Source: Minisyncoccia bacterium (GTDB taxonomy: Bacteria > Patescibacteriota > Minisyncoccia > Phycocordibacterales > UBA9973). From it: DNA of 64,000 bases. Under the pieces are notes generated by a model, which was not told where the DNA came from, did no database searches, and worked only from the letters and a program-made list of their open reading frames with translations. The position numbers and the translations under genes are program-made. This document shows positions 13,287 through 30,180 of the stretch, piece after piece. Position 1 is the first letter of the stretch. Each line of letters begins with the position of its first letter. Location of the stretch: contig JBGSSJ010000003.1 of the NCBI GenBank assembly GCA_041737125.1, positions 15,718-79,717 on the forward strand. The letters run 5' to 3'.

Positions 13287-13410
13287 TATACTATTTTTTA
13301 AAGTTGGCCCATAATTTAATACCTGGATTAACCTGTGAACAATGTGTGGATATGTTTATAACCATAGAAACATTGCATTATTCTTGATTATAGTATATAT
13401 TTTCTTTATG
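13287..13410. promoter_or_regulatory. Divergent rpmH/dnaA promoter region carrying a DnaA box (tgtggatat at 13346-13354, the reverse complement of ATATCCACA)
   Basis: Read directly. Confidence 0.5.
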
Positions 13411-13548
13411 TCTCAAACATACCAACCAAATAAAAGAAAAAGAGCCAAAACACACGGTTTTTTGGTAAGAGCTAAAACTCCAGGTGGTAAAAGGGTTACT
13501 CAAGCTCGTCGCCGCAAGGGTCGTGCAAAAGTTTCTATTAAGAAATAG
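13411..13548 (+). CDS. rpmH: 50S ribosomal protein L34
   Basis: [46 protein letters not shown] matches the L34 family. The tracked ORF 13342..13548 has a spurious N-terminal extension. Confidence 0.9.
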
Positions 13549-15365: not shown

Positions 15366-15427
15366 TACCTGCCTGCCGGTAGGCAGGATTACCTCAGATC
15401 AAGATTCCACAGTGTGGAATCTTTTTT
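15364..15427 (+). terminator. Two consecutive hairpins after jag: cctgcctgccggtaggcagg (15370-15389) and gattccacagtgtggaatc followed by T6 (15403-15427)
   Basis: Read directly. The second is a canonical intrinsic terminator. The first belongs to a recurring CCTGCCT-hairpin motif (see findings). Confidence 0.6.
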
Positions 15428-16714
15428 GTTTATGAAGAATATTTGCTCACCATTTTTATCCAAGAATAATTTAGTAGCATCTACTGACTCACTACTATAA
15501 GAATCGATATTTGTATTTTCTCCAGTCTTGGCATCAATCATTACAAAATTATCATCGAAAGAAACTAATCCTTGATACCAATTATCAGGCTGACTGCCGT
15601 CTATATTACTAGGAATGGCACAATATATTGTTACATTGTCTATATCCCAAACACACTTTTCTGGCAGAGAGTAAAGATTCAAATCCACAACACTCCTGTC
15701 TTTGGTATTAAATACATTTAATCTAGGTATACCAGAGAGTGATGAGCTGTATAGAATAAGAGAACCGTCATTACTTGCAAGTGTCGTCAATCCTTTAATT
15801 TCACCGAAAACTTTAGACAGTGTCCCATTTGCTGTATTTAAGCTGAAGATACTACCATTAACCCCTGAAGAAGCCTTAGTTGTGAGGAATATCTTATTAT
15901 TCCCTACCCACTGTGCTATCCACTCAGTGTACGGCGAGGCGAAGACTTGGGAGGACTTAGTTTCATTAAAAGACCGGATTGTGCCAGTAACACCACTACC
16001 AGACTTCGTAATATAAAAGTATCTATTTTTCTCTGGGGAAACTGCTATGTTTATAATATTTGATGGCAAGAATTCACTTTTTGTAGAGCCTAGCGATGCG
16101 ATGAAGCTACTAATAGAATTATTGTCAGCCGATAGATATCTATAAATTACTGATTTTGCGCTACCATCAAATATAACTTCATAAATACTTGGTATAGTCG
16201 AGTTCGATACTTTGCCTGATACTTTTGTATCTAGATACATCTGAAATATGTGCCCTGTGGCACGCTCTACGTATCTGATAGATGGAACAACTTCAAACTT
16301 GGGAGCTGTAGGCTTCGTAGCTTTAATAGTAGTTTTATTTATGACCGGTGGGGTGGTTTCACCGCCTTCTTTGACTTCTGTTGCGACAACAGCCTCAGGG
16401 ATGATTCTGGTGTCATCAAAGTAAGTAGCACCAGCTACTGCGAACTCTGTAATCTTGTGGAATTTCTGGCTTGCCTCGGGTTCTTTTACTAACTCACCAC
16501 GAGGAATATCCTCTGTTGGTGTTTCTATTTCTTCTCCCTCTATTTCTGTCTCTACGTCTTCACTTCCAAAAGGATTAAATATACTGTAGTCGGACTTCGG
16601 AGCCTCCCCTGTTGTATTAGTAGTCGTTTGATTCTTGTAATAGTAAAAACCAAACATCGCTCCACCGACGAGTATGAATACAGTTATGAAAATAATTATT
16701 GTTTTTCGAGGCAT
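15389..16714 (-). CDS. Hypothetical secreted protein (N-terminal signal anchor, large extracytoplasmic domain)
   Basis: 441 aa. N-terminal TM (IIIFITVFILVGGAMFGFYYY). Ser/Thr/Asn-rich. No catalytic motif recognised. Confidence 0.55.
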   Translation of the reverse strand: MPRKTIIIFITVFILVGGAMFGFYYYKNQTTTNTTGEAPKSDYSIFNPFGSEDVETEIEGEEIETPTEDIPRGELVKEPEASQKFHKITEFAVAGATYFDDTRIIPEAVVATEVKEGGETTPPVINKTTIKATKPTAPKFEVVPSIRYVERATGHIFQMYLDTKVSGKVSNSTIPSIYEVIFDGSAKSVIYRYLSADNNSISSFIASLGSTKSEFLPSNIINIAVSPEKNRYFYITKSGSGVTGTIRSFNETKSSQVFASPYTEWIAQWVGNNKIFLTTKASSGVNGSIFSLNTANGTLSKVFGEIKGLTTLASNDGSLILYSSSLSGIPRLNVFNTKDRSVVDLNLYSLPEKCVWDIDNVTIYCAIPSNIDGSQPDNWYQGLVSFDDNFVMIDAKTGENTNIDSYSSESVDATKLFLDKNGEQIFFINKKDSTLWNLDLR

Positions 16715-16761
16715 ATAATTTAGTTTATCTCACCTTTTTTATTGATTCATTTATTTGTTAA

Positions 16762-17754
16762 TTATATACTTAATCTTATTTGGCCACTTGCACTTTGGAA
16801 GTATGTGCTCATATTTTCCATTACTAACCTGATGGTAGCATACCCACCTCTAGAATTTGGGCGGACAGTAAGCTCTGTTTTCTTCGAAGGAGTATCTATG
16901 GCTTTATTATTTATCTGCCAGTTATATGTGAACCGAGATTCATTACCCACCACACCGAGGAAGTAAGGCACAGCTACGACTGTCATCTCTTCTTTCTCCA
17001 TATAAGTCCCATCTGTTAATGCAGAATTATACATGATGCCTTCAGTTGGGGACTTCTCGTAGAAGACAATCTTCGGATCCGTCATCGGTATGTTCACTGT
17101 CTTTGTCGCATTATAAGATCCATCTATAGAGGACACGGTGACTGTGATGCTGTCACTACTATTCATCTCACTATTGGTAAATACATAAGAATCTTTCCCA
17201 TAACCCGAAGCATTTGGTACTGTCTTGCCATTATTCTTCCATGTGTAGGTTAGATTCTTATTAGATTTGATAGAACTATTGTTCGGTATAGCTACTACAC
17301 GAATTAAGCTCTCGGATGAAGGGAAAGATTTACCTTTATAGAATGGTGGCGTGTATGCACTGACACCCTCCCAAAGTAGCTCTATATCAGTAGGGCTTAT
17401 AACTATCTGCTTCGTAATCTTAGATAGTGACCCATATGGAGTAATGGATATCTTGATAATTGTACTAGTATTTGGCCCCAATGCTTTGAAGGAGTAGCTT
17501 GTGCGACCTATACCAGAGAGCACTATACTTGATCCACTCTGCCACTCTATCTGAGCCTTGTTCAAGTCCGCCCCATAACTCTTCAGATTAATAGTGACGT
17601 TCTGGTATGGCTCAGGATTAGCGGGCACTGTGGTCGCTTCTATGTCGTAATCTTGTATTTGGAGCTCATCTATGGCTACACCTAGTTTCGGTAAAGATAC
17701 TACGACAAGTAGTATGATTAGTATAAAAAGGAGTTTTATTTGAGATTTCATCAC
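16762..17754 (-). CDS. Hypothetical secreted protein
   Basis: 330 aa. Signal peptide (MMKSQIKLLFILIILLVVVSLPKLGVA). Ser/Thr/Asn-rich with a beta-rich composition. Confidence 0.55.
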   Translation of the reverse strand: MMKSQIKLLFILIILLVVVSLPKLGVAIDELQIQDYDIEATTVPANPEPYQNVTINLKSYGADLNKAQIEWQSGSSIVLSGIGRTSYSFKALGPNTSTIIKISITPYGSLSKITKQIVISPTDIELLWEGVSAYTPPFYKGKSFPSSESLIRVVAIPNNSSIKSNKNLTYTWKNNGKTVPNASGYGKDSYVFTNSEMNSSDSITVTVSSIDGSYNATKTVNIPMTDPKIVFYEKSPTEGIMYNSALTDGTYMEKEEMTVVAVPYFLGVVGNESRFTYNWQINNKAIDTPSKKTELTVRPNSRGGYATIRLVMENMSTYFQSASGQIRLSI

Positions 17755-17796
17755 CCTTATATTATATGATAATTAAGGGTTATTAACAAACTAAAT

Positions 17797-19641
17797 CTAC
17801 TTACCATTGAATGACCAATGCCAAGGTTCTTTATCTAGATTTTGGAATCCATATTTAGATGCATTCGACTTAAGCCAAATGAAGCATTTACTATTTTTAC
17901 CACCTGAGGCCATCATTTTTTGACCATTACATGTAAAGTCTACAGCCCCTCCACCTTCATGATTTGAGTGGCCAGGTCTTGCTGTTGGAGGTTTGCAACT
18001 ACTTGATGGAGAGTTGTAGATATCCGGAGTACACCTATTCCTTTTTCTTAGAATAACTTGAGTTTGGTAGCTTCTAGATCCACTACCAGACAATATTATT
18101 CCATTCTTTTTGGCATCATCAAGCATTCTTTGAAGGTTAGAAGCTATAGGGATGCCACCAATAGAATTACAAACATTTATTTTATTCGGAGTACCGTATG
18201 TAGTTACATCTTTGTAACCAGTTGTACATAGATTTGCACCTTTCCCTGTAGGGGCCCCACCTCCTTGACTGTATATTGCATCAGGTTGTTCTAGTTCCAC
18301 TTCTTCATCTATCACACCCTGCACCCCCTCCACACTCAACCCATCCTTCCCTGTAAGCGCTGGATCTATGGTATTTAGTAATGCAAATGCACCAAGTGCT
18401 ATAAAGAGTCCTAGTAATGCAGCTTTTATCTTACTCTTCGCTTCTGTCTTACCGAATATTGACTCATCCCCTATATACTGTATACCAGCTATAATTATCA
18501 TTATCACAGCTAGTGCTCCAGCGAGTCCTATGCCTAGCTGGAACATTATATTAAAGTAATCCCCTATATTATCAGTCCTTATCTCTTTCAGTTTCCCTAT
18601 TGGTGCCAGTAATTCATATGTCATCTTGTTTACAAAAGATTGTTGATTCTCTGCATCTATACTGACGGCTTCGTCACCTTCCGGTATTATTTTGACTAAT
18701 TTACCATTATCAAGACAAAGACCAAAACAGTCATACCATAACCACCCAGTATTATTACTATTATTAGCAGAGCTATATGTAGTATTGTTGCCCTGATTTA
18801 TCTTAAAATACAAATCACAATTAAATCCAATAGAAGGTTTTTCACAATCTTCTTCACCTAGTAGTATTCTTATCTTGAAATTATCACTAGGAACTTTTAT
18901 GGGTTCATCATATATACCAGATTTATCCCAACCATCATCAGTTAATCTTGTTAAACCATCGGATTCATGAATAGTCAGTTTTATCCCAGTCCTACCCACA
19001 CAATCTTTTGACTTCACTACAATATCTGCATGAGTTAATCCTTCTACAAACCAAGCTCCTTTATGTTCTCCTGATGGATCCCAGTATGCGGACTCTATTT
19101 TACATGGAGATGATGTGTTCGTTGTATTTGTAGTTACTGTGCTACCTGTTACTGTTAGGTCGGTAATTTTTATTTCCTGAAATTTAAAGCTTTTGTCTAT
19201 CTTCTCTGATTTAGTGAGTCCATCTTTTGTTGTCGTTATTCTATTTACAATATTTACTGTCAGTATATAGTTCCCTTTTGTTACTTTGAATTGTCCACTC
19301 GCTAAAGTATTATCATTCTTATAATTAGTATTCATAGCCGCAGAATTGGATATAAGCAAAGGTTTCGTCGTAGTCCCCTTGGTGTTATTATAGCCATATG
19401 TAGTAGAAGGGTTAGCTTTCAAATTAAGAGTTATGCCATATGTTACATCTTTATTATCTCCATTTACGGCTGTATTTGCAGCTCCGAAGTTTATAAAGGG
19501 TCCGTTGATTGTATAATTTACTTTTAGGTCCGGAACTGATGGTAATCCTGCAGTAGTAATTGTCTCAGCATTAGTTATGCTTGGGATAATATAGATTAAA
19601 GAAAGTAGGAATATAAGTATGTATCTAGAGAATTTTTTCAT
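17797..19641 (-). CDS. T4SS-associated cell-wall hydrolase: a large secreted N-terminal domain, then a two-TM pilin-like hairpin, then a C-terminal peptidase M15 (VanY-like) domain
   Basis: 614 aa. Signal peptide. TM pair FQLGIGLAGALAVIMIIIAGIQYI / ALLGLFIALGAFALLNTI. M15 zinc-site motifs SRSYQTQ, HSNHEGGGAVDF and EPWHW. Gene sits adjacent to the VirB4 gene. Confidence 0.6.
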   Translation of the reverse strand: MKKFSRYILIFLLSLIYIIPSITNAETITTAGLPSVPDLKVNYTINGPFINFGAANTAVNGDNKDVTYGITLNLKANPSTTYGYNNTKGTTTKPLLISNSAAMNTNYKNDNTLASGQFKVTKGNYILTVNIVNRITTTKDGLTKSEKIDKSFKFQEIKITDLTVTGSTVTTNTTNTSSPCKIESAYWDPSGEHKGAWFVEGLTHADIVVKSKDCVGRTGIKLTIHESDGLTRLTDDGWDKSGIYDEPIKVPSDNFKIRILLGEEDCEKPSIGFNCDLYFKINQGNNTTYSSANNSNNTGWLWYDCFGLCLDNGKLVKIIPEGDEAVSIDAENQQSFVNKMTYELLAPIGKLKEIRTDNIGDYFNIMFQLGIGLAGALAVIMIIIAGIQYIGDESIFGKTEAKSKIKAALLGLFIALGAFALLNTIDPALTGKDGLSVEGVQGVIDEEVELEQPDAIYSQGGGAPTGKGANLCTTGYKDVTTYGTPNKINVCNSIGGIPIASNLQRMLDDAKKNGIILSGSGSRSYQTQVILRKRNRCTPDIYNSPSSSCKPPTARPGHSNHEGGGAVDFTCNGQKMMASGGKNSKCFIWLKSNASKYGFQNLDKEPWHWSFNGK

Positions 19642-19671
19642 GTTATATTTTTAATTAAAATTATTAAAATT

Positions 19672-21513
19672 TTACTGATTCGCCTCTTGTGCAGCTAATT
19701 CATCCTTCGCTTTCTTGATAGAAAGTATCTGTGATGGGTCTGAAGTTATAATCTGGTCTTCGGTGTAGGAAGCGATTGTTTTCACAGCGACGTGCTTGAG
19801 CCCTGCGAAGAATATACCCTCTCCGACATTCGCTTCGAGGAGCAGATACTTCTCTTCGTCTGTCAGGTTGAATGTCTTCTGTAGTACATCTATGGTTGAT
19901 GGGGATTGCTTCAATAGTATCTGGATAGAAGAGTTCGTGATTATCGGCACACCATATGGACTCTTCATGAAGTCGCCCACGTCTTGGGTAATAGTAGCAA
20001 GTCCTAGGTAGTATTTACGCCCACGCTTTGCGATAGAGTATAGGAATGAAGCAGTATCTTCAGACTTCATCATCCACCAAGCCTCATCGACTACAAGTAG
20101 TCGCTTCTTTATATTCTTGCGCACAGCATTCCATATCTGATGGATAACTATGTACATAGCGACTGGTTTGAGTTCATCTTCCATGTCGCGGACAGAGAAC
20201 ACCACGAATTTACGATTAATATCCACGTTCGTCGGCTGGTTTAGGAATGAAGACCATGAACCGTGGGTATACTTCGCTAGTCTTTGTATAAGGGATTCAC
20301 TACCATCCATACCCGCTAGGACCATTTCGAAGTCCATCAGTAGTGGTGGCTCTATGTTTGCAAAGTTGGATTCTGCTGTTATGTCCTTCAGTGCATAAGT
20401 CTCTGTGATGGCTCGGTCGATAATAGAATCTTCCTCTGGAGTAAGTCCTCCGAGCATGATGCGGAAGAGCCCCACTAGGTGTATGGTATTAGCGCGTAGT
20501 ACATCGGCTGGAGTCTCGTCGGATGTGGGTATAGGCAAGTCGAAAGGATTGATATGGTGATCAGAAGAAAGAGCGATATTGAAGTATCTACCCCCTACTG
20601 CTTCAGAGAGGTATTCGTACTCACGCTCTGGGTCGATGACGATGACTTCTGTGTCGAACATAAGTGTGCGAACAATCTCAAGCTTCGTTGCATAAGATTT
20701 ACCAGCACCAGAAGTAGCGAATGTAATAGAGTTATAGTTCGGCAAGGAGAACCTATCAAAGATTATCAGACTAGAGTTGTGGCGGTTCACTCCATAGAGT
20801 ATTCCTTTGTCAGAAGTAAGGTCGAAAGATACAAATGGGAACAGGCTAGATAGTGGCTCCGTATCAAGCTTCTGATTTATGTTTATGATGTCTGTCCCTG
20901 TAGGGATGACACTCTTGAAAGCTTCATCTTGCTGGAAGAGCGCTGGCTTCAGATAGATGAGTTTCGATTCAAGTAGTGACTTGATCTCACTCTCTACTTT
21001 GAATAAATCATTCTCATTATCGGCATAGATAGTAATATATAGACCCACATCGAACATTTTCGCTTGGGCCTGCATCAGGTTGTCGCGTAGGCCTTCGAGG
21101 TCGCGGTAGGCGGTGTCGAGCATCGGGTCGCGCACCAGGCCTTTCGACTCACGGATCGATATCTGACTTTGGACTTCAGCTACTTTCTTCTGGAAAGATT
21201 TCAATACTTCGCTTGTATCGATAGGGTGTATAAAAATAGAGACATCGAAAACTTTGTCCAAGTTGATAATCGGAGAGAACCAGTTGTCGGTAAGATAGCG
21301 GGGATAAGATATAACGAAGAAGGTACGGGCTATCTTGTCGCCTAGGTTTAGAACTTTCGGTGTAATCTGTAATGCTGATGGTGCGATAATATCCTGTAGT
21401 TCGAGAGTAGCCGCATGATATATTTCGGAAGGTATAACAGGCATCACCGTGCTCTTCGGCTTCGGATTGTTGTTGCTATTCCCTCCTCCAAATATTGATG
21501 AAAAAATTCCCAT
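19672..21513 (-). CDS. virB4: VirB4/TrbE/CagE-family T4SS ATPase, C-terminal ATPase portion
   Basis: 613 aa. Walker A FATSGAGKSYATKLEI. Walker B LLVVDEAWWMMK (the DEAW motif typical of VirB4). Arg-finger-like region KRGRKYYLGLATITQ. Confidence 0.85.
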   Translation of the reverse strand: MGIFSSIFGGGNSNNNPKPKSTVMPVIPSEIYHAATLELQDIIAPSALQITPKVLNLGDKIARTFFVISYPRYLTDNWFSPIINLDKVFDVSIFIHPIDTSEVLKSFQKKVAEVQSQISIRESKGLVRDPMLDTAYRDLEGLRDNLMQAQAKMFDVGLYITIYADNENDLFKVESEIKSLLESKLIYLKPALFQQDEAFKSVIPTGTDIININQKLDTEPLSSLFPFVSFDLTSDKGILYGVNRHNSSLIIFDRFSLPNYNSITFATSGAGKSYATKLEIVRTLMFDTEVIVIDPEREYEYLSEAVGGRYFNIALSSDHHINPFDLPIPTSDETPADVLRANTIHLVGLFRIMLGGLTPEEDSIIDRAITETYALKDITAESNFANIEPPLLMDFEMVLAGMDGSESLIQRLAKYTHGSWSSFLNQPTNVDINRKFVVFSVRDMEDELKPVAMYIVIHQIWNAVRKNIKKRLLVVDEAWWMMKSEDTASFLYSIAKRGRKYYLGLATITQDVGDFMKSPYGVPIITNSSIQILLKQSPSTIDVLQKTFNLTDEEKYLLLEANVGEGIFFAGLKHVAVKTIASYTEDQIITSDPSQILSIKKAKDELAAQEANQ

Positions 21514-21514
21514 A

Positions 21515-22168
21515 TTATTGTAATTTAATTCCTTGGCTTATATCACCAGGATTGAATGTTTTATAAAAAAGTTCTACAACTTCATCTGTTTTCAGTTGGG
21601 AGCTGCGCACACCAAGCCCTCCAAGGCCAGAGATGATCACGCCCACTCTCTCGTCGAGCTGGCTACGCTTCTCCTCGAAGTCGGCCATATCCATAGCCTT
21701 CTTCGTATTCTCTATCTGCTTCTTTGGTGCAGAGGATCCGAGCAACTTCTCTATAGCATCTCCGCTTGATTTTATAACATTAGAACTATAAGGCACAACA
21801 ATGAAGAAAGTCTTTGTCATGATGTTCACTTCATCGGTGAACGACTTGATGAATTCTATATACTCTTTTGTTTGTATCTTCAGAAGCTTCTCTGTCTGCT
21901 CGCGTTCACGGGCCTCTAGAGTAAGTAAGTAAGGGCGGATATCTAGTCTACGAGACTGTACAACTATCTGTATAGAGAAGTCGAGTCCATTTAAGAAAGA
22001 TTGGAATTGATTGATGATGGCCATCTGCTCATCGGAAGATTTAAGTGATAGGTTGATGGATGATGCTATGAGGACAGCACGAAGACCGCCATCTTTAAGT
22101 ATGATGACTCCATTGCGGACTTCTTTTATTGGAACGAATTCTTGAGCAGCGCGTGCATTTATAGCCAT
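21515..22168 (-). CDS. VirB4 N-terminal domain encoded as a separate ORF
   Basis: 217 aa. FVPIKEVRNGVIILKDGGLRAVLIASSINLSLKSSDEQ resembles the N-terminus of Gram-positive VirB4 homologs. Its stop is 1 nt before the ATG of the ATPase ORF (TAAtATG). 217+613 = 830 aa, a typical full VirB4 length. Confidence 0.6.
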   Translation of the reverse strand: MAINARAAQEFVPIKEVRNGVIILKDGGLRAVLIASSINLSLKSSDEQMAIINQFQSFLNGLDFSIQIVVQSRRLDIRPYLLTLEAREREQTEKLLKIQTKEYIEFIKSFTDEVNIMTKTFFIVVPYSSNVIKSSGDAIEKLLGSSAPKKQIENTKKAMDMADFEEKRSQLDERVGVIISGLGGLGVRSSQLKTDEVVELFYKTFNPGDISQGIKLQ

Positions 22169-22214
22169 AATATAATTACAAATTAGAATACATAATCATT
22201 ATACTATATTCCAT

Positions 22215-22248
22215 TAGTAATTCGTAATCCTGCCTACTGGTAGGTGGG
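22215..22248. repeat. Intergenic motif tagtaattcgtaat followed by the hairpin cctgcctactggtaggtggg (a G-U tolerant stem), sited between the VirB3-like and VirB4-N ORFs
   Basis: Read directly. The motif is shared with the 15364-15394 site; the core TAATTCGTAAT recurs at 22677-22687 (opposite orientation) and twice at 23757-23786. Confidence 0.6.
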
Positions 22249-22250
22249 TA

Positions 22251-22667
22251 TTAATTACCTACATTATCGTCTTTCACATCTAGACTCCAGGATAAATCCT
22301 TCAAAGAATTTGCAGACGACATAGGAACGATAGAAGTCATACTGTTCGGTAGCTGATCAGGAGCGACTTCGCCTTGTTTGGGCTTTACTAGACGCTGCTT
22401 CCAGACATATAGCTTGCTCGACATTACATAGTTGAGGGCTGCTTGTAAGTAGTATATAAAAGGTTTTTCATTTATGCGGTAGAAAACAAGGAGTAGGGTG
22501 AGGCCTCCTATAAGTAATATAGGTAGAACAGCTACCCAGAATGGTAGCATACGGTATAGAACGAATATCATTCCTCCCCCACCGAGCATATATGCGAATT
22601 GCTTGAAGGTAAAAGGTCCAAATAACTTGTCCTCAACATCTATAAATTGTGGAACTTTGAATTGCAT
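22251..22667 (-). CDS. VirB3/PrgI-like small membrane protein of Gram-positive-type T4SS
   Basis: 138 aa. Two TM helices (MLGGGGMIFVLYRMLPFWVAVLPILLIGGLTLLLVFY) after a short cytoplasmic N-terminus. Lies immediately upstream of the VirB4 ORFs. Confidence 0.5.
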   Translation of the reverse strand: MQFKVPQFIDVEDKLFGPFTFKQFAYMLGGGGMIFVLYRMLPFWVAVLPILLIGGLTLLLVFYRINEKPFIYYLQAALNYVMSSKLYVWKQRLVKPKQGEVAPDQLPNSMTSIVPMSSANSLKDLSWSLDVKDDNVGN

Positions 22668-22693
22668 AGAAGGGTAATTACGAATTAAAATTA

Positions 22694-23716
22694 CTAAATT
22701 GACTCATGATAAGGATCATGGATGACTTTACTTGTAGCTTGTGGAGGTGGAGTACTAATAGGAGCTTCTGCTTTAGGTGTAGGTGTAATTTTCGACATTG
22801 ATTGGTCGGTGACAACATTCTTACTCATAACCATCTGATTTAATTTGTTGGCGAATATATCTACACTAGGGTTCGCAGATGATGCGCTACTTGTATTAAT
22901 AGGCAGACTACTTCTACTCTCAGACATACTCGCACGCATATTTGGAGCAGGTGTTGTATTTATAGAGCTCTTTACTGCACTACGCAACTCTTCTATATAA
23001 GGTGGAAGTGGTACTTCATCATCCATAGAGCTAGGTGCGGATGGACCTTCATTCCCCCAGTTGGATTTCAATATTTCACGAATAGGAAGTAGAATTTTCT
23101 CATTCACGCTCTTTACTACCATGGCCACTTTGTCCGCCGTTATTGGTAGCTTGCCCTGTAGTTCTATCTCATATTTGTCGGGGTGGATAATACCAAGGAG
23201 GACTTTGTTCGTCACTTCTTCGAGGCTACCCATTTGCTCTATATTTAATTTATTCTCAGTTCCTATACTAAATAATACATTCTGATAGTCAGACTGCATT
23301 ATAGCCACTTGCACTTCTTGGGGGAGCTTGGCAAATCGCTCGTCGAGCTTGCTTAGGTCTCCATACTTCTCTTCTACTAGGCTTGCGACATGTGTGTCAT
23401 AAGCATCTGCAAGCAATGGCTTGATGTTATTAAATACAGTATTGTCTATCTCCTCCATCATCTTCGCTAGTATTGCGTCTTGCATACCGAGCTCTTTCTT
23501 CAAATTATCCTCATACTCTTCTGTGCGGATGATGCCGAGTAAAGCGAGAGTCGTCTCGGTAGCCAGGGTCTCAATTTGTGCATTATTTAGATTGTATTTG
23601 ATACTAATAGTCTTGAGGGTCTCCATCCATATCATATTAGAAAATACTTGCTGCGCATCAGGCGGAAGCTTAGAGTAAGAGAGAGCTATTTGTTGTTGTA
23701 ATTGTTCTGGATTCAT
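22694..23716 (-). CDS. Hypothetical soluble protein with a Ser/Pro/Thr-rich C-terminal third (T4SS-cluster member)
   Basis: 340 aa. No TM. Low-complexity tail SMSESRSSLPINTSSASSANPS...PTPKAEAPISTPPPQATS. Confidence 0.5.
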   Translation of the reverse strand: MNPEQLQQQIALSYSKLPPDAQQVFSNMIWMETLKTISIKYNLNNAQIETLATETTLALLGIIRTEEYEDNLKKELGMQDAILAKMMEEIDNTVFNNIKPLLADAYDTHVASLVEEKYGDLSKLDERFAKLPQEVQVAIMQSDYQNVLFSIGTENKLNIEQMGSLEEVTNKVLLGIIHPDKYEIELQGKLPITADKVAMVVKSVNEKILLPIREILKSNWGNEGPSAPSSMDDEVPLPPYIEELRSAVKSSINTTPAPNMRASMSESRSSLPINTSSASSANPSVDIFANKLNQMVMSKNVVTDQSMSKITPTPKAEAPISTPPPQATSKVIHDPYHESI

Positions 23717-23786
23717 TGTGATTTTATTTTTTCCTATTAATCCTTCCTAGCTCATTAGTAATTCGTAATTATAAATTCGTAATTGT

Positions 23787-26174
23787 TTAATGGTGTCCTC
23801 CCCCCCCTCCACCATGTCCTGCGTCCGCCTTCGCATGACCACCCCCTCCACCCGAACTCACTTCGATTTTCATACCTTTTAGGGTAGTTTCAAGTGTGTT
23901 TCCCAAATCCTTTAAGAAATCTTTTTGTGCAGTCCCTGTGTTTACCTTTAGTCCACTCTTGAGCCCCATACGCACCCCACCCGCAACTACAGCAGCTAAA
24001 CCTACACCTACATTCGGTATAAATCCTTTTGATTTTACTTTTGTGTCTGGAAGATTTCTTAGATCATAACTTCCTTTTCTGAGAGCGTTAACAAATTCAC
24101 TAACAGCTGTCGCTTTTTTTGTATCTCCGACCATATCTGTAGATGTATGAACATGCTCACCTCTAGTTGCTGCTATTTGTTTATTAGCTTCTGCGGCATC
24201 AGCCCACTCACCATTTGGATTAATTGGATTTCTATTGGTATCAATAACACCTCTTTGTGCTTGATCAAGTTTTTCGTAGGGCTTATTATATTGTTCTTTT
24301 GATACGATATCTCTATCAATTCTATCTCGAACAGTTTTTTGCTGATCTTCTCCGAGATCTTTATACTTCATTTCTTTATTACCTGTAACAGCTTGGGCCT
24401 TTTCATCTAGTACATGTTCTGAGTGCTCCTTAGCCCCCAACTTCTTGCTCTCTCTTTGGATCCAACTCGTTTCTTGCCCTGTGTGGGGATCTGCTTTTCT
24501 TCCTATTCTAGATATTCCATGTGCAACACCCGCCGCCGCCGCCTTACCTGTACCTTGTACAGCTTCTTTTGCTAATTTGGTGTAAGCAAGTGGATTTATA
24601 ACATTCCAACCCTTTATTTTCTTAGCAGCTTCTTTGGTGTCTTTATAGTTAAGAGCATTTTCTCTGGCTCCATCGTTTTGTGCGTATTTAGATACTGAAC
24701 CCATGGTCTGTCTTCCTAGTGCCGCCGCACCAAGAGCTGCACCACCGAGAGCAAGTCCACCCATAGCCATACCGACATTCGTGACTGTAGAGCCGATGGT
24801 ACCAGCTAATTTGGAAGCGATAGATTTTGCTTGCCATAGAAGCACCATGATGAAAATGAAAGGCACTATGGTGGCGAGGATAAACGCCGCACCGTTCTCA
24901 GAGTTCACAGGCACTAGGCTTTCTAGGCTTACGAACTTGATTATCATATACATGAAGAACATGAATACTGGGGCGAGGAATGCCATCTTGATGGTTTCTG
25001 ACCACCATTTCTTGTAGCCGACCATTTCCATGTCTGCCATGGCGGGTACTGTATAAGAGAAGAATGCAAAAGGTACGAGTATCATAGCGAGCCACAGTCC
25101 GATAACCCGAGCGACAAATAGTAGTCCGACAGTAAGGAACACTATGAACCCGATAACATTGATAGCTATAGCAAGAACAGTTACAAGTATGTATACACCA
25201 GCTCCGTCATTTGTTTCTGTTAATTGCTGTGTGGTCATTACAGTCGTCTCTGAGTTTGATTTATTTATCTTACCCACTTTGCCCAATCCCTCACTTATAA
25301 GCTTTTGAGGATTTACTTTTGATACTATAACCTCAGACATAGGTATAGGCTTACCAGAATCTGTGTCAACGGCTTTACCATCTTTAGTCACACTAATAGT
25401 CTGTGAGTTATAGAAGACTCGCGCCAAGATGTTCGAAGTGTCGATGATGATTTGTGTAGCAAATAAGCTGAAGTTTATCAACAGTCCTATGATGACTACC
25501 TTTACTATCATATCCTTCGGGCCTGAGCCATGCCCACCACCGACGCCGAGTATAGTAGTAAATGCCACATACAAGAGTACGAATATGAAGAACATATTCA
25601 CTATGTCGCGCACTAATCCCCAACCCTCGAGTACAAAAGTAGAGCGATAAGAGTCATCATTAATAGAGTATGCGAACATATTATCGAAAAATATTCCAGC
25701 AAGACCGAACAAAGCAGATGTTAAGCTAAATAACATGTCGAATAATTGAGCAACACACCCCAAGAATGTTCCAGTGGCTCCTACCTTAAACATAGTAGCA
25801 AAAACACAATTCGGTACCACATCTACTTTTGGTTCTGATGCATTCACAGAAAGACCAGCCGCAGCACGAGCCTCTTGTAATACATTAAGTAAATTTTCTA
25901 CTTGTATTCTAAGTGCAATTATTTCTTCGGCGGTATAAGAACTACCATCTGCCTTTGTTCCTCCCGCGAGGGCTTTATTATAGATATCGATTGCAGCATC
26001 ATGCGCTTTCTTCGCATCATCTATCGCTTTCTGTTTCTCTTCAGGGGTTAGGTCTGCATTTACTATATTTGCGCGGACTTCTAATCCCCTCTCGATATTC
26101 CTTGCTACGCTAAAAGGCGCGAACAAGTTCACGAGTATGACTAATAAGAGGATTGTAGGGAGGAACTTTTTCAT
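23787..26174 (-). CDS. Large polytopic membrane protein, VirB6/TrbL-like channel candidate, with a long cytoplasmic tail ending in a Gly/His-rich tract
   Basis: 795 aa. Signal peptide. At least 7 hydrophobic helices between aa ~150 and 480. Charged ~300 aa C-terminal region ending SSGGGGGHAKADAGHGGGGGGHH. No catalytic motifs. Genomic context with VirB4/VirB3-like genes. Confidence 0.5.
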   Translation of the reverse strand: MKKFLPTILLLVILVNLFAPFSVARNIERGLEVRANIVNADLTPEEKQKAIDDAKKAHDAAIDIYNKALAGGTKADGSSYTAEEIIALRIQVENLLNVLQEARAAAGLSVNASEPKVDVVPNCVFATMFKVGATGTFLGCVAQLFDMLFSLTSALFGLAGIFFDNMFAYSINDDSYRSTFVLEGWGLVRDIVNMFFIFVLLYVAFTTILGVGGGHGSGPKDMIVKVVIIGLLINFSLFATQIIIDTSNILARVFYNSQTISVTKDGKAVDTDSGKPIPMSEVIVSKVNPQKLISEGLGKVGKINKSNSETTVMTTQQLTETNDGAGVYILVTVLAIAINVIGFIVFLTVGLLFVARVIGLWLAMILVPFAFFSYTVPAMADMEMVGYKKWWSETIKMAFLAPVFMFFMYMIIKFVSLESLVPVNSENGAAFILATIVPFIFIMVLLWQAKSIASKLAGTIGSTVTNVGMAMGGLALGGAALGAAALGRQTMGSVSKYAQNDGARENALNYKDTKEAAKKIKGWNVINPLAYTKLAKEAVQGTGKAAAAGVAHGISRIGRKADPHTGQETSWIQRESKKLGAKEHSEHVLDEKAQAVTGNKEMKYKDLGEDQQKTVRDRIDRDIVSKEQYNKPYEKLDQAQRGVIDTNRNPINPNGEWADAAEANKQIAATRGEHVHTSTDMVGDTKKATAVSEFVNALRKGSYDLRNLPDTKVKSKGFIPNVGVGLAAVVAGGVRMGLKSGLKVNTGTAQKDFLKDLGNTLETTLKGMKIEVSSGGGGGHAKADAGHGGGGGGHH

Positions 26175-26186
26175 TACTAATTTACT

Positions 26187-27008
26187 TTACCAAATCTTGA
26201 ACAGCTCTTCTAGTATCTCGTATGTAGGGACATAAGGTGTGATGCTATCTACTGCTGTGTTGTAGTAAGGATTAGACTTTATAGTCTTCGGTCCACTGTA
26301 CCTGTAGTCGGCCTTCTGTGCTATACACTGAGTGTTCAGGGTCTCTGCTCGGGCTACTAGGTCAGTGTTCGTCTTCAAGTCACCTTGTAGTAACTCTATA
26401 TCATCTTCTGTTTTTAGTAGATAAGATATAGCGTAGTAATCTTTAAGTAATGCTTCAAGCTCAGTCTTCTCGGCATCGGTGAATACAAGTGGGTCATCGC
26501 TCGGACAGTATGCTTCGACTATAGGTCGTGGCGTATTATCGACAGGTCGAATAGGGTCCCTGATAGGGTCACCTAGGCCACCTCCATTATTTCCTTCCCA
26601 TCCGTCATCTTCATCAGGAACTGTAATAGGGTCAAGTGGCGGTGTAATACCAAATCCTCCACCACTACCCAAGCCCCCACCTGAGCCGAATTCGCCAGTA
26701 CCAAACCCTCCGCCAGTATTACCTCCTGTACCACCGTTAGGATCTGTAGGGTCTACTGGTGTCTGTCCACCTGTACCAGGATTCACAGTTCCACCAGGTT
26801 CAGTGCCAGTATCTACCGGAGTAAGCTCCTTTGGCTTCTTGGTGCCGAATAATGATTCGAATATTTTGTTCGAGCCACCTTCCTCTGTACTCTTGGTCTC
26901 GGACTTCTTCATATTACGGAACAGGAAAAAGCCTATCAATAATAATATCAGTACTATTATGAATGTTATGAGGAACGCTTTGCTTTTTCTTGGGTTATGA
27001 TCATCCAT
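26187..27008 (-). CDS. Hypothetical bitopic protein with a Gly/Pro/Thr-rich low-complexity segment
   Basis: 273 aa. N-terminal TM (FLITFIIVLILLLIGFFLF). Tract GGTGGNTGGGFGTGEFGSGGGLGSGGGFG. Confidence 0.5.
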   Translation of the reverse strand: MDDHNPRKSKAFLITFIIVLILLLIGFFLFRNMKKSETKSTEEGGSNKIFESLFGTKKPKELTPVDTGTEPGGTVNPGTGGQTPVDPTDPNGGTGGNTGGGFGTGEFGSGGGLGSGGGFGITPPLDPITVPDEDDGWEGNNGGGLGDPIRDPIRPVDNTPRPIVEAYCPSDDPLVFTDAEKTELEALLKDYYAISYLLKTEDDIELLQGDLKTNTDLVARAETLNTQCIAQKADYRYSGPKTIKSNPYYNTAVDSITPYVPTYEILEELFKIW

Positions 27009-27012
27009 ATAA

Positions 27013-29259
27013 TTATTTTAATACACCATTATCATCTAAATACGTAATCTTCTCCACAGCTAGACATATAGCTTTCATCGCAGGCTTACCCTTGGCTACT
27101 CTTTCGGCTGTGCGTCTCTTCTGTGCTGCGTCTATTATCTTGTTTACTTTATCTTTGATTACATTGAGGCGTGTGATGCTTGTTGTCGTGTCTGCTACTG
27201 CTTGCTTGTATTCATCTTTTGCTTCCTTGATGGCTTCATCGTAAGAGGCTAAGTCTTTCGTAATATTTAATCCCTCCACAGACATTTTTAGATAGTTTGG
27301 ATTGGTTAGTGACTGTGTCTGCATAGGGCTGTCAGGTCCGTATGTTTTACTCACTTCTAATTCGTAAGCATTTACAGTTTTTTGTATATCCTCTAGTTTT
27401 ATTGGAGGGGGAACTAAAGAACCTTCCTCCGCTTTCTTAAGGGCATCAAGCAATTCTTGGGTAACTAGGTTTTCTCCCAATTCATTACCTTGATAGTAGA
27501 GATCGGCAATCATTTCCCTAAGCATTATTTTTTGCTTTTCATTTTCTGCATACAAACTAACTGTACCAGAATATTCATCTATAACATCTGTTGAATTAGT
27601 AAACCAATTTGGATTTGGTCCAGGGATACAATAGTCTAGTTTACCTATAGTGGGGACGACTTTATCGAGCACAACCTGAGCATCTTTTAGGAGCTTGATA
27701 TAGTCATACTGTACTTGTAGTATACCCCTCTTCTCTATCACAAGCTTACCTTTTAATGATGCATCTGTATATTTATTCCCTATATCACTCGTTAGGCTGA
27801 AGTATCCTACATTTGTTGTAAATGCATTTCCGGTATTAGCAGTTAGACTGTTGCCGTCTGCATCAAATATCTGATTAATGCCGAACCCCCCACTTCCGCT
27901 ACCAGAGAAGTCGTTGTCAGCCGAGCGCAAGCCATACAGTCCTTGCGTGGTGAACTTATTTAGAAGAACAGCGAACAGGCTATTTAGAGCATCGTCTATA
28001 GTCTTTACTAGTTCTATCTGGCGCTCAGGTGTATTTAAGTGTGTATCTACCTTTGTCTTTATATTACTACCTGGAGTCACTGTCTTCCATTGGAGGCATT
28101 TTGGTGATCCGTCTGGGTTCTGAGTATCGTCTTCTCCTGCCCACTCTGCACACTCTTTCTGGTCTAAGTAGCCTCCATTACGAGCTATCTCATCCGCAGT
28201 TTGCTGGACTGCTTCATTCCTCTTCCTACCTATGAGCTCTGTTGCCTTGATAGTGAATCCTAGCGGATTATTCTCCGGCTTTTGGGTGAAGGCGAACCAT
28301 CCATCCCAGCCACCTTCGGAGAAGTCTTCAGAGAAGCTCTCGGGTGTAGCCCCTGGCTTTAGGTAGTCAGTTAAATCTTGCCGGAGAGCATTGTTTATAT
28401 TACCTTTATATCTTTGAGCTAGTATTTGTGAACGAGCAAAGTCTCTGCCGTAAGGGTGGTCTATAGATCCTTCCTCACCAAGTTTTGCAAGCTCATTCTG
28501 AAGTATCTCCCCACTGACACTGTCTAGTAATGAAGTTACATTCGTCACATACATAGGGTCACCGTTGAATCCACTATTTACCCAGTTCATAGTCTGCTTT
28601 GTCATAAGGGTGAGCTGCCTCTTCGCTAGAGCTACAGCGATACCGTTGAAGCATTTTTCTTGCTGTTCTTTCAGTTCTTTCTTGTTATCATCCTCTACTT
28701 TTTGTTTTGCATCTCTTTCTAGTTCTGCTAATAATGAATCATCATATACTTCTTTAGGAGCTGCATCGGTTTCGAATTTATCAGCATTATCAATACCTGT
28801 TTGTATACCAGTAGCTATACCAGCTCCAACTCCTTGAGGTATCCATCCCACAGCTATTGCTGCTGTTGATAAGGCACTAGTGATTGTTTTTTTTATTTTT
28901 TCGATTTCGTCATTTATTGCTTTTGTTTTGTTTTTGCTTTTTAGTAGGTTTTTTAATTTATCTTCCAATTTGTTTGTTAAATTATTAAGTTTTTTCTTAA
29001 AAAGATCGTTTACTTGGAGAAGTTTACCTGCAAGCGTATTTGTAATACCCGTACAACTAAGTACAGATGTAAGTAGTTCGGGACTATCTTTTAGAGATTT
29101 CAATGATAATTGATAAGGATTTTTACCGTTCGCACCAGGATTATTGTAATTAAGTAAGTTATTATCAGCCAGAAGTTGCAAAGGCAGAATAACTTGCGAA
29201 GCAAGTATAGCCACTACGAGTATTATAGGAATTATTTTTTGACTTAGTAACTTACTCAT
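27013..29259 (-). CDS. Large hypothetical extracytoplasmic protein (N-terminal signal anchor) within the T4SS-like block
   Basis: 748 aa. N-terminal TM (IIPIILVVAILASQVILPLQLL). No recognisable motif. Gly-rich patch GWIPQGVGAGIATGIQTGIDNADKFETD. Confidence 0.5.
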   Translation of the reverse strand: MSKLLSQKIIPIILVVAILASQVILPLQLLADNNLLNYNNPGANGKNPYQLSLKSLKDSPELLTSVLSCTGITNTLAGKLLQVNDLFKKKLNNLTNKLEDKLKNLLKSKNKTKAINDEIEKIKKTITSALSTAAIAVGWIPQGVGAGIATGIQTGIDNADKFETDAAPKEVYDDSLLAELERDAKQKVEDDNKKELKEQQEKCFNGIAVALAKRQLTLMTKQTMNWVNSGFNGDPMYVTNVTSLLDSVSGEILQNELAKLGEEGSIDHPYGRDFARSQILAQRYKGNINNALRQDLTDYLKPGATPESFSEDFSEGGWDGWFAFTQKPENNPLGFTIKATELIGRKRNEAVQQTADEIARNGGYLDQKECAEWAGEDDTQNPDGSPKCLQWKTVTPGSNIKTKVDTHLNTPERQIELVKTIDDALNSLFAVLLNKFTTQGLYGLRSADNDFSGSGSGGFGINQIFDADGNSLTANTGNAFTTNVGYFSLTSDIGNKYTDASLKGKLVIEKRGILQVQYDYIKLLKDAQVVLDKVVPTIGKLDYCIPGPNPNWFTNSTDVIDEYSGTVSLYAENEKQKIMLREMIADLYYQGNELGENLVTQELLDALKKAEEGSLVPPPIKLEDIQKTVNAYELEVSKTYGPDSPMQTQSLTNPNYLKMSVEGLNITKDLASYDEAIKEAKDEYKQAVADTTTSITRLNVIKDKVNKIIDAAQKRRTAERVAKGKPAMKAICLAVEKITYLDDNGVLK

Positions 29260-29283
29260 ATAATCAATAATAGTATATCACTT

Positions 29284-30180
29284 TTATTCTAATTTGGTTG
29301 ATAATTTATCGATATCAAGAACCAATGCCTGGCTATATCTGTTGTAATTAATAATACCTTTCATGCCCACGATAGGGTTCGAGAATAGCTTGGTCAGGTC
29401 GTATATAGACTGTGCCACCTTTTCATAATTATTGGCCAGACTAACATGTGCATCAACCATATCGAGCGGAACTGATAATTTTATTAAATCTTTACTATAA
29501 TTTCTATAAGAATCAGCAATTTTCGACACGAGAGCGAGTGCGGCCTTATCATTGTTGTTTAGTGCTGTTTCTACGAAGAATAATTCATCCCCAAGATTAC
29601 TTTTTGAATATTTTATATTTAAATTAGTGTAATCGGTAAAATAAGTTATAATTTCAAATCCATCCTCGTCTGCTTCTGCTATTTTTACCATATCTCTACT
29701 GTACACATCTGCTATGGGTTCCGCGACAATCTTCTGCCCTATTGCTTCGTTGACCGCATTTAGAGTCCCTTCATTTAGGTTCCCAGTCTGTTGGAGTGAC
29801 ATAATAACAGCGAAGAATTCTTTCGATAAAGCCTCATTCTCTTTCGAATCAATACCTTCATCTGTGAATAGGGGCACACTAGTATCCTTTTCTAATGCTT
29901 CTCTTTTCGCCAAGATAAATGCTTTATTCTCTGGGCCGTTTAGGTATGGGTCTAGTCCCCAGAGGGATTCCTCCCAGTCTGGAATACCGTTCGTGTTGCT
30001 ATCTTGGAGGACTAAGTCTTTGACTATGAGAGTATCTACTTCTCCTCTCTTGGTAGCTACCTTTTTCTTTATGAAGCGACTGATTTCTGTAATACCAAAA
30101 ACAAGCCCAATGATAATGAGGATAATAAGGACGCGGGCTCTAAATTGTGTACTCGGTAGATACTTCTTATCTATAGTCAT
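29284..30180 (-). CDS. Hypothetical bitopic membrane protein. Its topology and size are compatible with a VirB8-like component, which is speculative
   Basis: 298 aa. Single N-terminal TM (ARVLIILIIIGLVFGI), then a ~260 aa extracytoplasmic domain. First gene of the minus-strand block before rsmA. Confidence 0.45.
   Translation of the reverse strand: MTIDKKYLPSTQFRARVLIILIIIGLVFGITEISRFIKKKVATKRGEVDTLIVKDLVLQDSNTNGIPDWEESLWGLDPYLNGPENKAFILAKREALEKDTSVPLFTDEGIDSKENEALSKEFFAVIMSLQQTGNLNEGTLNAVNEAIGQKIVAEPIADVYSRDMVKIAEADEDGFEIITYFTDYTNLNIKYSKSNLGDELFFVETALNNNDKAALALVSKIADSYRNYSKDLIKLSVPLDMVDAHVSLANNYEKVAQSIYDLTKLFSNPIVGMKGIINYNRYSQALVLDIDKLSTKLE

Follow-up and report, generated by a model that had tools for sequence, protein, structure and literature searches.

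Much of the uncultivated bacterial world belongs to the Patescibacteria (CPR), which seem to subsist on other microbes. In the one cultivated relative that has been tested, Southlakia epibionticum, growth on the host depends on a type IV secretion system (T4SS) in which neither a relaxase nor a coupling protein can be recognised (Wang et al. 2023, PMC10633639): the S. epibionticum ML1 cluster, SEML1_0004-0019, was shown by Tn-seq to be essential for host-dependent growth, and it lies beside dnaA and dnaN and has, downstream of virB4, genes for a DD-peptidase and lysozymes. Quinonero-Coronel et al. (2025, PMC12102498), who surveyed 3,035 genomes, described a Patescibacteria VirB4 clade with TrsD, PrgI, VirB6 and VirB2-like components, derived from MPF_FATA systems and encoded near dnaA, dnaN, rnpA, ksgA and rpmH. 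According to the same work, relaxases are rare (103 of the 3,035 genomes), VirB8 is rarely detectable, and VirD4-like genes occur in most Patescibacteria genomes, far from virB4. The T4SS of this group has also been reviewed (PMC12857230). Conserved and origin-proximal, it belongs to the small number of machines whose essentiality for such a lifestyle has been shown.

The gene block analysed here, within a 64-kb window (the whole stretch of DNA that was studied), is this already published, vertically inherited T4SS that ultrasmall Patescibacteria keep beside dnaA, in its Paceibacteria form. A preliminary description of the same DNA had proposed a domesticated, non-conjugative T4SS of Gram-positive type rather than an ICE, and the assignments of the core proteins, the synteny across 80 genomes and the missing mobility genes all support that proposal. 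The domesticated, non-ICE reading is not new, as it matches published conclusions for Patescibacteria.

Chromosomal setting and the question of mobility

The block runs from 15389 to 30180 and consists of eleven consecutive minus-strand ORFs between jag and rsmA, numbered here g1 to g11 from the jag side; coordinates and strand were confirmed for all of them, and the spacing between neighbouring ORFs is 1-82 bp. Both flanks are core housekeeping genes, as previously described: dnaN (10618-11715, minus strand), dnaA (11922-13286, minus), rpmH (about 13410-13548, plus), rnpA (13560-13880, plus), yidC (14153-14896, plus) and jag/KhpB (14904-15365, plus) on one side, rsmA (30230-31030, minus) and pcrA/UvrD (31422-33386, minus) on the other. 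The block had also been said to adjoin the replication origin; this stands in so far as dnaA, dnaN and a few DnaA boxes are found there, which is its sole basis, the origin itself being inferred only, as the skew over 64 kb tracks gene orientation and did not locate oriC. The GC content of the block is close to that of its flanks. A promoter scan returned promoter-like sites at chance level, terminator-like sites numbered 24 against 12.3 expected (19 of the 24 on the strand opposite the operon), and a hairpin formed by the intergenic heptamer repeat ATTACGA did not exceed shuffled sequence in stability (z -1.3). The region 33774-43521 holds five large charged ORFs, which were considered as members of the system and rejected, since none of the related loci contains a homologue of them and they carry no export signals. 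A PilB-like ATPase is encoded elsewhere in the window.

The comparison set comprised 80 related species-level genome loci, all from CPR MAGs. The order rsmA-g11-g10-(g9)-g8-g7-PrgI-TrsD-VirB4-g2/g3-g1-jag-yidC-rnpA-dnaA-dnaN recurs in nearly all 80 species genomes, so that the conservation beside dnaA/dnaN for which the preliminary description had suggested a search is indeed present, and the same order between the same flanks implies that the block is not a mobile element. The location near dnaA, dnaN, rnpA, ksgA and rpmH, with no associated relaxase, is thereby seen both in the window and, as a context, in the related loci. Median identity across the loci is 79% for VirB4 compared with 65% for DnaA, 59% for PcrA, 57% for DnaN and 51% for RsmA, which points to strong purifying selection on a core function.

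Genes for DNA processing and mobility were sought throughout the 64 kb. A Pfam scan of all ORFs of at least 100 aa and one of 84 aa revealed no relaxase or coupling protein, and tblastn with PcfC and PcfG gave no match in any frame of the window or in the 1.39 Mb of the 80 related loci. A Walker A motif could not be made out convincingly in any of the Pfam-negative ORFs (the ORF h514 has a single match resembling one, within a charged segment, which was judged to be chance), and a second VirB4/VirD4-like P-loop protein was not found in the 64 kb. There is no tRNA near the block, no convincing flanking direct repeat, and no flanking integrase or att repeat at the block borders within the window. 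Of the features that characterise MPF_FATA conjugative elements, the relaxase and the VirD4/TcpA coupling ATPase were not found in the window, nor an integrase with att repeats at the borders of the block, as the first description had noted for the near surroundings of the block.

These data bear directly on the idea that the block is an ICE, or a decayed remnant of one near the origin, whose relaxase, coupling protein and integrase were recently lost or are encoded beyond the window. VirB4, TrsD, PrgI, a VirB6-like protein and a wall hydrolase are genes of monoderm conjugative elements, and a tyrosine recombinase is encoded at 54800-55723; this, however, is a 307-aa protein of XerC/D type, 25 kb from the block among housekeeping genes. 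The identical housekeeping neighbours of the block in nearly all 80 species genomes, a VirB4 more conserved than DnaA, the GC content close to that of the flanks, the lack of tRNA, att repeats, relaxase and T4CP in 64 kb, and the scarcity of relaxases among Patescibacteria (PMC12102498) all speak against an ICE; synteny largely refutes it, and we regard it as very improbable.

A VirD4-like gene may nevertheless lie elsewhere in the source genome, beyond the 64 kb, and because such genes were found in most Patescibacteria in the 2025 survey, DNA transport by the block has to be considered. The machine could import DNA or nucleotide polymers, working in reverse like Helicobacter ComB or archaeal Ced and feeding a cell that is unable to make nucleotides. 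Patescibacteria lack nucleotide synthesis, import systems require no relaxase, and pcrA/UvrD is two genes from the block; in S. epibionticum growth requires the T4SS but not the comEC-based competence, and uptake of DNA or other macromolecules has been proposed (PMC12102498). Yet Pfam and NCBIfam recognise no DNA-binding or DNA-processing component in the block, and pcrA is a universal housekeeping gene whose adjacency is weak evidence; import of this kind is rather unlikely in our estimation.

Core components of the apparatus

Searches of all eleven proteins against Pfam and NCBIfam, a check that the preliminary description had proposed, matched VirB4, TrsD, PrgI, M15 and pilin families and left six proteins without a firm family. 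The VirB4-type ATPase (19672..21513, minus strand, 613 aa) matches P-loop_TraG (3.3e-26), AAA_10 and DUF87, has intact Walker A (ATSGAGKS) and Walker B (LLVVDEAW) motifs, and is 26% identical to PrgJ of pCF10 over 554 aa (E 1.6e-40). The 120 matches listed out of 8000 scored were 87-100% identical to the query and covered 96-100% of it, and wherever the source name stated an organism, this was Patescibacteria, Paceibacterota or Nomurabacteria; by these similarities the protein is assigned to the Patescibacteria VirB4 group. One base upstream lies the ORF of a TrsD-like protein (21515..22168, minus, 217 aa) homologous to the VirB4 N-terminal domain, with NCBIfam matches to VirB4_plasma (2.6e-10, profile positions 104-238), TrsD/TraD (2.2e-7) and CD1110-type VirB4 (9e-5), all of them below the curated cutoffs; it is present in 80 of 80 loci at a median identity of 60%. 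The next ORF (22251..22667, minus, 138 aa) encodes a PrgI/VirB3-like small membrane protein with a hydrophobic stretch at residues 43-61, which scores 28.7 bits with Pfam PrgI against a gathering score of 27, also matches TcpE (3.4e-4, Pfam), and occurs in 76 of 80 loci. A VirB4 with its N-terminal domain as a separate ORF, and a VirB3/PrgI-like neighbour, had both been proposed earlier and are upheld by these matches; TrsD and PrgI/VirB3 homologues directly upstream of virB4 are moreover a trait of the chromosomal T4SS of the Patescibacteria clade.

The large polytopic protein g8 (23787..26174, minus, 795 aa) resembles an "extended VirB6", with an N-terminal secreted region, a membrane core of 6-7 helices (residues about 137-470), a helical cytoplasmic domain at the C-terminal end and a conserved Gly/His tail. 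The earlier designation as a VirB6-like protein of about 800 aa holds at the level of fold only, in that the membrane core has a VirB6-like fold and is encoded beside VirB3 and VirB4: neither g8, nor 28 orthologues, nor 17 other family members gave a Pfam or NCBIfam match. A few homologues carry a precomputed match to PF19590, which was not reproduced and on which a literature search gave nothing. A search of 1.84 billion representatives with the family profile returned, among the 150 listed, only close family members and no annotated VirB6 that would form a bridge, and hhalign aligned g8 to Orf15 of Tn916 weakly (61% probability over 42 columns).

The hydrolase g3 (17797..19641, minus, 614 aa) comprises a signal peptide, a variable ectodomain, a VirB2-like two-helix membrane hairpin at residues about 366-425 (hydrophobic segments 369-387 and 407-425) and a C-terminal M15/VanY peptidoglycan peptidase domain at residues 499-613 (VanY 3.8e-14, Pfam), with both zinc-ligand motifs, HSNHEGGGAVD and EPWH, intact. 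The hairpin of the window protein matches T4SS_pilin at 1.5e-4 (22 bits, Pfam), and NCBIfam adds Mbov_0395 pilin-like (5e-4) and LdcB (5e-5). Among 42 orthologues, 38 match T4SS_pilin (best 9e-10) and five also match TrbC/VirB2, so the fusion of an M15 peptidase to a pilin-like hairpin of two membrane helices, as first described, is well founded. The C-terminal domain varies across the same orthologues between VanY, NlpC/P60, YkuD, M15_4, SLT and Amidase_5. Through g3 the block possesses the VirB2-like pilin domain near virB4 that is a trait of the Patescibacteria-clade T4SS, and the protein probably supplies a membrane-tethered, VirB1-type wall-opening function.

A VirB2-like hairpin could also suggest that the block mainly produces a filament or adhesive structure on the cell surface, a VirB2-type pilus or stalk, by which the cell attaches to its host without transfer of a substrate. 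The Saccharibacteria cluster contains essential arrays of VirB2-like pilins (PMC10633639), and the window block encodes several large extracellular proteins. However, its only VirB2-like hairpin is embedded midway in a 614-aa protein, with an ectodomain on one side and an enzyme domain on the other, which is hard to square with polymerisation into a pilus, and the gaps within the block, 82 bp at most, leave no room for a free pilin gene. Adhesion in the group is already served by type IV pili (PMC12206443), and a PilB-like ATPase is present in the window. A purely adhesive structure therefore seems improbable.

Six conserved proteins without a firm family

The preliminary description counted at least five components without a recognisable family and gave six coordinates for them; six proteins indeed lack a firm family. 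Two are encoded on the jag side. The first, g1 (15389..16714, minus, 441 aa), has an N-terminal membrane anchor, its single hydrophobic segment being at residues 5-23, and an extracellular domain that is possibly a TolB-like beta-propeller: weak matches to PD40 occur in 6 of 45 orthologues and to PG_binding_1 in 4 of 45. A homologue follows VirB4 in 67 of 80 loci (median identity 35%). The secreted protein g2 (16762..17754, minus, 330 aa), with an N-terminal hydrophobic segment at residues 8-26, occurs in 76 of 80 loci (median identity 34%) and has no match in Pfam, NCBIfam or PDB sequences; it directly follows VirB4 in all relatives, while g2 and g3 are swapped in the window.

The cytoplasmic protein g7 (22694..23716, minus, 340 aa) was detected in 46 of 80 loci and consists of two helical repeats of about 110 aa, a disordered tail and a C-terminal D-P-Y motif, in which D334, P335 and Y336 are invariant or nearly so among 32 orthologues. 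It has no hydrophobic segment and its tail is rich in S and P, in agreement with the soluble S/P-rich protein of the earlier account; no Pfam, NCBIfam or PDB match was found. An adaptor and a substrate are both candidate roles for this cytoplasmic protein. A relationship to a neighbouring DUF5663-like ORF was considered and dismissed, as comparison showed no similarity.

The remaining three lie towards rsmA. The bitopic protein g9 (26187..27008, minus, 273 aa) has an N-terminal TM segment (residues 12-30), a Gly/Pro-rich linker and a C-terminal domain of ~110 aa; it evolves fast, tblastn detecting it in only 8 of 80 loci, and the same slot holds an ORF in close relatives. The envelope protein g10 (27013..29259, minus, 748 aa) has an N-terminal anchor followed by a long extracellular region that is predominantly helical and in which Cys, Trp and Gly motifs are conserved. 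In the bitopic g11 (29284..30180, minus, 298 aa) the TM segment (residues 15-33) is followed by a conserved Asp-rich motif, D-x-D-G-D-G-I-x-D-W-E-E, and W69, L73, Y180 and N250 are invariant in 33 orthologues; it occurs in 37 of 80 loci, in each of them between g10 and rsmA, and has no Pfam, NCBIfam or PDB-sequence match.

Pfam and NCBIfam gave nothing for g2, g7, g8, g9, g10 and g11, whether with the proteins or with their orthologue sets, and profiles of g1, g2, g7, g8, g10 and g11 found nothing below E 0.07 among all PDB sequences. Seven orthologue profiles compared by hhalign with single pCF10 proteins from PrgC to PcfC gave no probability above 20%. A VirB8-like (NTF2) component was not identified in the block: g11 matched neither PDB sequences nor, by hhalign, PrgL or PrgD, and g9 had no match in Pfam or NCBIfam.

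Proposed function and relation to known systems

What was directly observed is the set of components, their conserved location and the lack of genes for DNA processing, and the core parts are confirmed by profiles and fold. We consider it probable that the block is the Patescibacteria chromosomal T4SS, descended from MPF_FATA, and that it serves the transfer of macromolecules between epibiont and host rather than conjugation. With neither a relaxase nor a dedicated coupling protein in the block, its likeliest cargo is proteins or other macromolecules, passing from one of the two cells to the other in either direction. In such a machine the VirB4 ATPase, with TrsD as its detached N-domain homologue, would dock via PrgI/VirB3 onto the VirB6-like polytopic channel protein of the cell membrane; the VirB2-like hairpin protein would hold the M15 peptidoglycan-cutting enzyme outside the membrane and so open the wall locally; g1, g2, g9, g10 and g11 would form the extracellular structure for reaching or binding the host, and g7 would act as a cytoplasmic accessory protein or substrate. 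The layout of the extracellular part is a guess, since six of the eleven proteins cannot be placed firmly in any family. We tentatively speculate that the system of Paceibacteria has no free pilin and uses the hairpin to tether an exchangeable wall-cutting cassette to the membrane, and that together with this the five conserved, family-less envelope proteins form an extracellular conduit without counterpart among solved T4SSs, serving the uptake of host macromolecules instead of DNA export, although we hold this to be doubtful.

The window is a further example that confirms the published picture and leaves it unchanged. With a complete operon, six conserved proteins without a firm family and a hydrolase-pilin fusion, it may serve as a clean Paceibacteria reference locus and as a possible starting point for structural or genetic work on CPR outside the Saccharibacteria.

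The block shares with the Patescibacteria-clade T4SS the VirB4, the adjacent TrsD, the PrgI/VirB3, a large VirB6-like protein, a VirB2-like pilin domain and exported Ig-like proteins; both are chromosomal beside dnaA/dnaN and have no relaxase or coupling protein in the cluster. As in S. epibionticum, wall hydrolases including a DD-peptidase fold lie directly downstream of virB4. The Saccharibacteria cluster differs in having six free pilin genes in an array, where the window block has one pilin-like hairpin inside a hydrolase fusion, and an NTF2-like (VirB8-type) protein, where the window block has no recognised VirB8; the block in turn has its own family-less set (g1, g2, g7 and g9-g11).

Monoderm MPF_FATA systems (pGO1 Trs, pCF10 Prg/Pcf, Tn916, ICEBs1 and the Mycoplasma ICE) have VirB4, PrgI and a wall hydrolase in common with the block, and monoderm conjugative T4SS share its compact order hydrolase-VirB4-VirB3-VirB6. 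TrsD is also found in pGO1, a polytopic VirB6-type protein in Tn916 (the weak match to Orf15), and the g3 hairpin weakly matches the Mbov_0395 family of the Mycoplasma ICE. In hhalign comparisons with Tn916 Orf13-17 only g8 against Orf15 scored, and no block profile matched PrgC/D/E/F/G/H/K/L/M, PcfA/B/C or Tn916 Orf13/14/17. Unlike these systems, the block, a fixed part of the core chromosome that surpasses DnaA in conservation, has no relaxase, VirD4/TcpA, oriT, integrase or PrgB-type surface adhesin. A functional analogy, for which PMC12102498 and PMC12857230 are the sources, exists with Bordetella Ptl, Brucella VirB, Helicobacter ComB and archaeal Ced, VirB4-driven channels without a relaxase that export protein or import DNA. 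These systems are diderm or archaeal and have other accessory parts, and none of them is a phylum-wide conserved feature of the core genome or essential for growth.

A conserved locus beside dnaA

Eleven successive ORFs, all on the minus strand and with intergenic gaps of 1-82 bp, occupy 15389-30180, flanked on one side by dnaN, dnaA, rpmH, rnpA, yidC and jag/KhpB and on the other by rsmA and a PcrA/UvrD helicase. Rechecking of the ORFs and a hydropathy scan found the coordinates, order and topology in the preliminary description of these genes to be accurate. The scan gave a single N-terminal anchor in each of g1 (15389-16714), g2 (16762-17754), g9 (26187-27008), g10 (27013-29259) and g11 (29284-30180), both a signal segment and a hairpin of two helices in g3 (17797-19641), 7-8 hydrophobic segments in g8 and none in VirB4, TrsD or g7.

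A one-genome-per-species scan yielded 585 confirmed loci, of which 80 were kept for comparison. Using tblastn with the window proteins, we found a single order wherever contigs were long enough: rsmA-g11-g10-(g9)-g8-g7-PrgI-TrsD-VirB4-g2-g3-g1-jag-yidC-rnpA-dnaA-dnaN. The synteny check proposed in the preliminary description finds the block kept at the same site in nearly all of the 80 related loci; the window order of VirB4, g3, g2 (16762-19641) is the reverse of that in all of them (VirB4, g2, g3). With a median identity to the window of 79% in these loci, VirB4 is better conserved than DnaA (65%), PcrA (59%), DnaN (57%), RsmA (51%) and YidC (49%); medians are 60% for TrsD, 47% for PrgI and 27-40% for the other block proteins. 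Among the 120 VirB4 matches listed, homologues are 87-100% identical, and the organism, where stated, is always Patescibacteria, Paceibacterota or Nomurabacteria. Many MAG records from third-party (TPA) assemblies, loci L001, L006 and L008 among them, carry a Paceibacteria/Nomurabacteria-type locus, with VirB4 75-92% identical, under the title ‘uncultured Candidatus Saccharibacteria bacterium’; these titles are probably mislabelled.

The absence of a relaxase, coupling protein, integrase or att site near the block, as first read from the DNA, is upheld by searches of the 64-kb window. A Pfam scan of all window ORFs of at least 100 aa and, among those of 80-99 aa, one of 84 aa revealed no relaxase or second VirB4/VirD4-type ATPase. 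The Pfam-negative ORFs contain no convincing Walker A motif, one motif-like match, in ORF h514, being judged a chance occurrence, and tblastn with PcfC and PcfG of pCF10 had zero matches in the window and in 1.39 Mb of related loci. Window tRNAs are confined to 62.4-62.7 kb, the block borders show no convincing direct repeats, and the sole recombinase is a XerC/D-type protein of 307 aa (54800-55723) amid housekeeping genes. Because the same core genes flank it in dozens of species and its ATPase is more conserved than DnaA, the block, judged by sequence comparison, represents a core system rather than a mobile element. That it is instead an ICE is effectively excluded by this fixed position and by window scans that found no relaxase, no coupling ATPase and no flanking tRNA or convincing repeats.

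GC content drops to 0.27-0.29 at 10000-12000, in dnaN and the region linking it to dnaA, whereas most other window DNA has 0.32-0.44. Near dnaA there is one perfect DnaA box at 11908, with one-mismatch boxes at 11768 and 13345; a denser cluster of three DnaA-box-like 9-mers, one perfect, lies within 66 bp at 62719-62784 (and 63432), intergenic and beside tRNA-Arg and tRNA-Gly. The strongest strand skew of the window is at 33774-43521, where the products of five minus-strand ORFs (1054, 514, 527, 202 and 828 aa) are very rich in Glu and Lys and for the most part coiled-coil-like. None has a Pfam family above threshold, and the flanks of the 80 related loci contain no homologue of any of them; those of 514 and 527 aa, with C-termini similar by eye, are apparent paralogues. 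So are two proteins of ~560 aa (45399-47081 and 58290-59987) with near-alike N-terminal double CxxC motifs (zinc-ribbon-like), one of which has a weak treble-clef zinc-finger match at its C-terminus.

ATPase and membrane components

VirB4 (19672-21513, minus strand) matches P-loop_TraG (3e-26), AAA_10 and DUF87 in Pfam, aligns with pCF10 PrgJ over 554 residues at 26% identity (E 1.6e-40) and has intact Walker A and Walker B motifs. The ORF immediately upstream (21515-22168, minus strand), previously described as a separate VirB4 N-terminal domain, corresponds to TrsD: it resembles the N-terminal region of the VirB4 of Mycoplasma ICEs (2.6e-10) as well as the TrsD/TraD profile (2.2e-7), both below curated cutoffs. 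PrgI/VirB3 (22251-22667, minus strand) scores above the Pfam PrgI threshold. Profile matches uphold both the VirB4 and the VirB3/PrgI calls.

The polytopic g8 (23787-26174, minus strand; 795 aa) had been called VirB6-like. Neither it nor 28 orthologues and 17 further family members match any Pfam or NCBIfam family. Its AlphaFold2 model, built with 76 homologues, has a mean pLDDT of 76, and ~90 in the membrane core. The sole non-trivial score in 133 hhalign comparisons set the family profile against Tn916 Orf15, at 61% probability over 42 columns. We accept the name for predicted fold, topology and position, but not for sequence family. The g8 C-terminus is a conserved Gly/His tail (consensus ...HGGGGHH). 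Cytoplasmic g7 (22694-23716) consists of two helical repeats and a disordered S/P-rich tail ending in an invariant D-P-Y; we speculate that a protein built in this way could serve as an adaptor, or be a substrate bearing a C-terminal signal. Attempts at fold assignment for g10 gave no match, and profile searches brought out no VirB8 equivalent in the block.

An ATTACGA-heptamer repeat lies at 22175-22228, 22677-22686 and 23753-23783 (also in loci L017, L052 and L038). Its exact 10-mer ATTACGAATT occurs four times against 0.19 expected, always between genes, in the three gaps that surround g7, PrgI and TrsD, and its inverted arms flank g7. The repeat is present in only 8 of the 80 loci; in a few relatives as many as 17 copies occupy the same places, flanking an inserted small ORF whose translation resembles, by eye, the four-helix-bundle proteins of rRNA intervening sequences. 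Some copies there fall within coding DNA. The local hairpin does not exceed shuffled sequence in stability.

A pilin-like hairpin with exchangeable enzymes

The preliminary description had an M15 hydrolase fused to a pilin-like hairpin in g3 (minus strand), and both halves are borne out. The C-terminal VanY/M15 domain (3.8e-14) contains the zinc motifs H-x6-D and E-x-x-H, and the hairpin gives a sub-threshold T4SS_pilin match. The hairpin assignment is sound because T4SS_pilin is matched by 38 of 42 orthologues from related genomes (best 9e-10) and TrbC/VirB2 by five. Across these 42 (alignment A6) the hairpin is constant and the C-terminal enzyme exchanged: VanY (8), NlpC/P60 (8), YkuD (4), M15_4 (3), SLT_2 (2), Amidase_5 (2) or SLT (1). 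The N-terminal ectodomain is variable too, with Ig-like or CBM domains (TIG, Big_1, Filamin, CBM_10).

Proposed mechanism and published parallels

The analysis establishes which parts are present, how well they are conserved and that recognisable DNA-processing genes are missing; the remainder of the mechanism we infer. A VirB4/TrsD motor would sit atop a PrgI-VirB6 membrane platform, the VirB2-like hairpin would tether a wall-opening enzyme, and the five proteins that are anchored or secreted (g1, g2 and g9-g11) may form the external part. The cargo may be protein exported to a host or macromolecules taken up from it, and a live rival is that the block imports DNA.

Using Tn-seq in the Saccharibacterium Southlakia epibionticum, Wang et al. 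(2023, PMC10633639) demonstrated that epibiotic growth requires an ‘apparent T4SS’ (SEML1_0006-0019). This system is like Gram-positive conjugative systems, with pilin genes present and coupling and relaxase proteins not recognisable, and their tables place it beside dnaA, dnaN and recF. Genes for an exported Ig-like, a lysozyme/NlpC-P60 and a DD-peptidase-fold protein come first, followed by VirB4, a TrsD-position gene and PrgI, then two large proteins of VirB6 type, one NTF2-like protein and six pilins. In a survey of 3,035 genomes, Quinonero-Coronel et al. (2025, PMC12102498) found Patescibacteria VirB4 to be a monophyletic clade nested in MPF_FATA, with TrsD, PrgI/VirB3, VirB6 and VirB2-like homologues widespread near virB4, relaxases in only 103 genomes, and VirD4-like genes common yet seldom near virB4. 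The neighbours of virB4, particularly in Paceibacteria, are dnaA, dnaN, rnpA, ksgA and rpmH, and the authors conclude that co-option gave the system a role other than conjugation, possibly import; a FEMS review from 2025 (PMC12857230) gives the same account.

These parallels, with the synteny, the VirB4 conservation and the lack of DNA-processing genes, support the domesticated, non-conjugative reading first proposed. The window block is the published system, so that reading is correct but duplicates known work. What the locus still offers is its conserved family-less components and its hydrolase-pilin modularity. Saccharibacteria have free pilin genes, whereas the window block has none; PMC12102498 makes no mention of a pilin-hairpin/wall-enzyme fusion, and this lack of a free pilin, the reversed order of g2 and g3 and the domain swapping of g3 are small additions beyond the literature compared.
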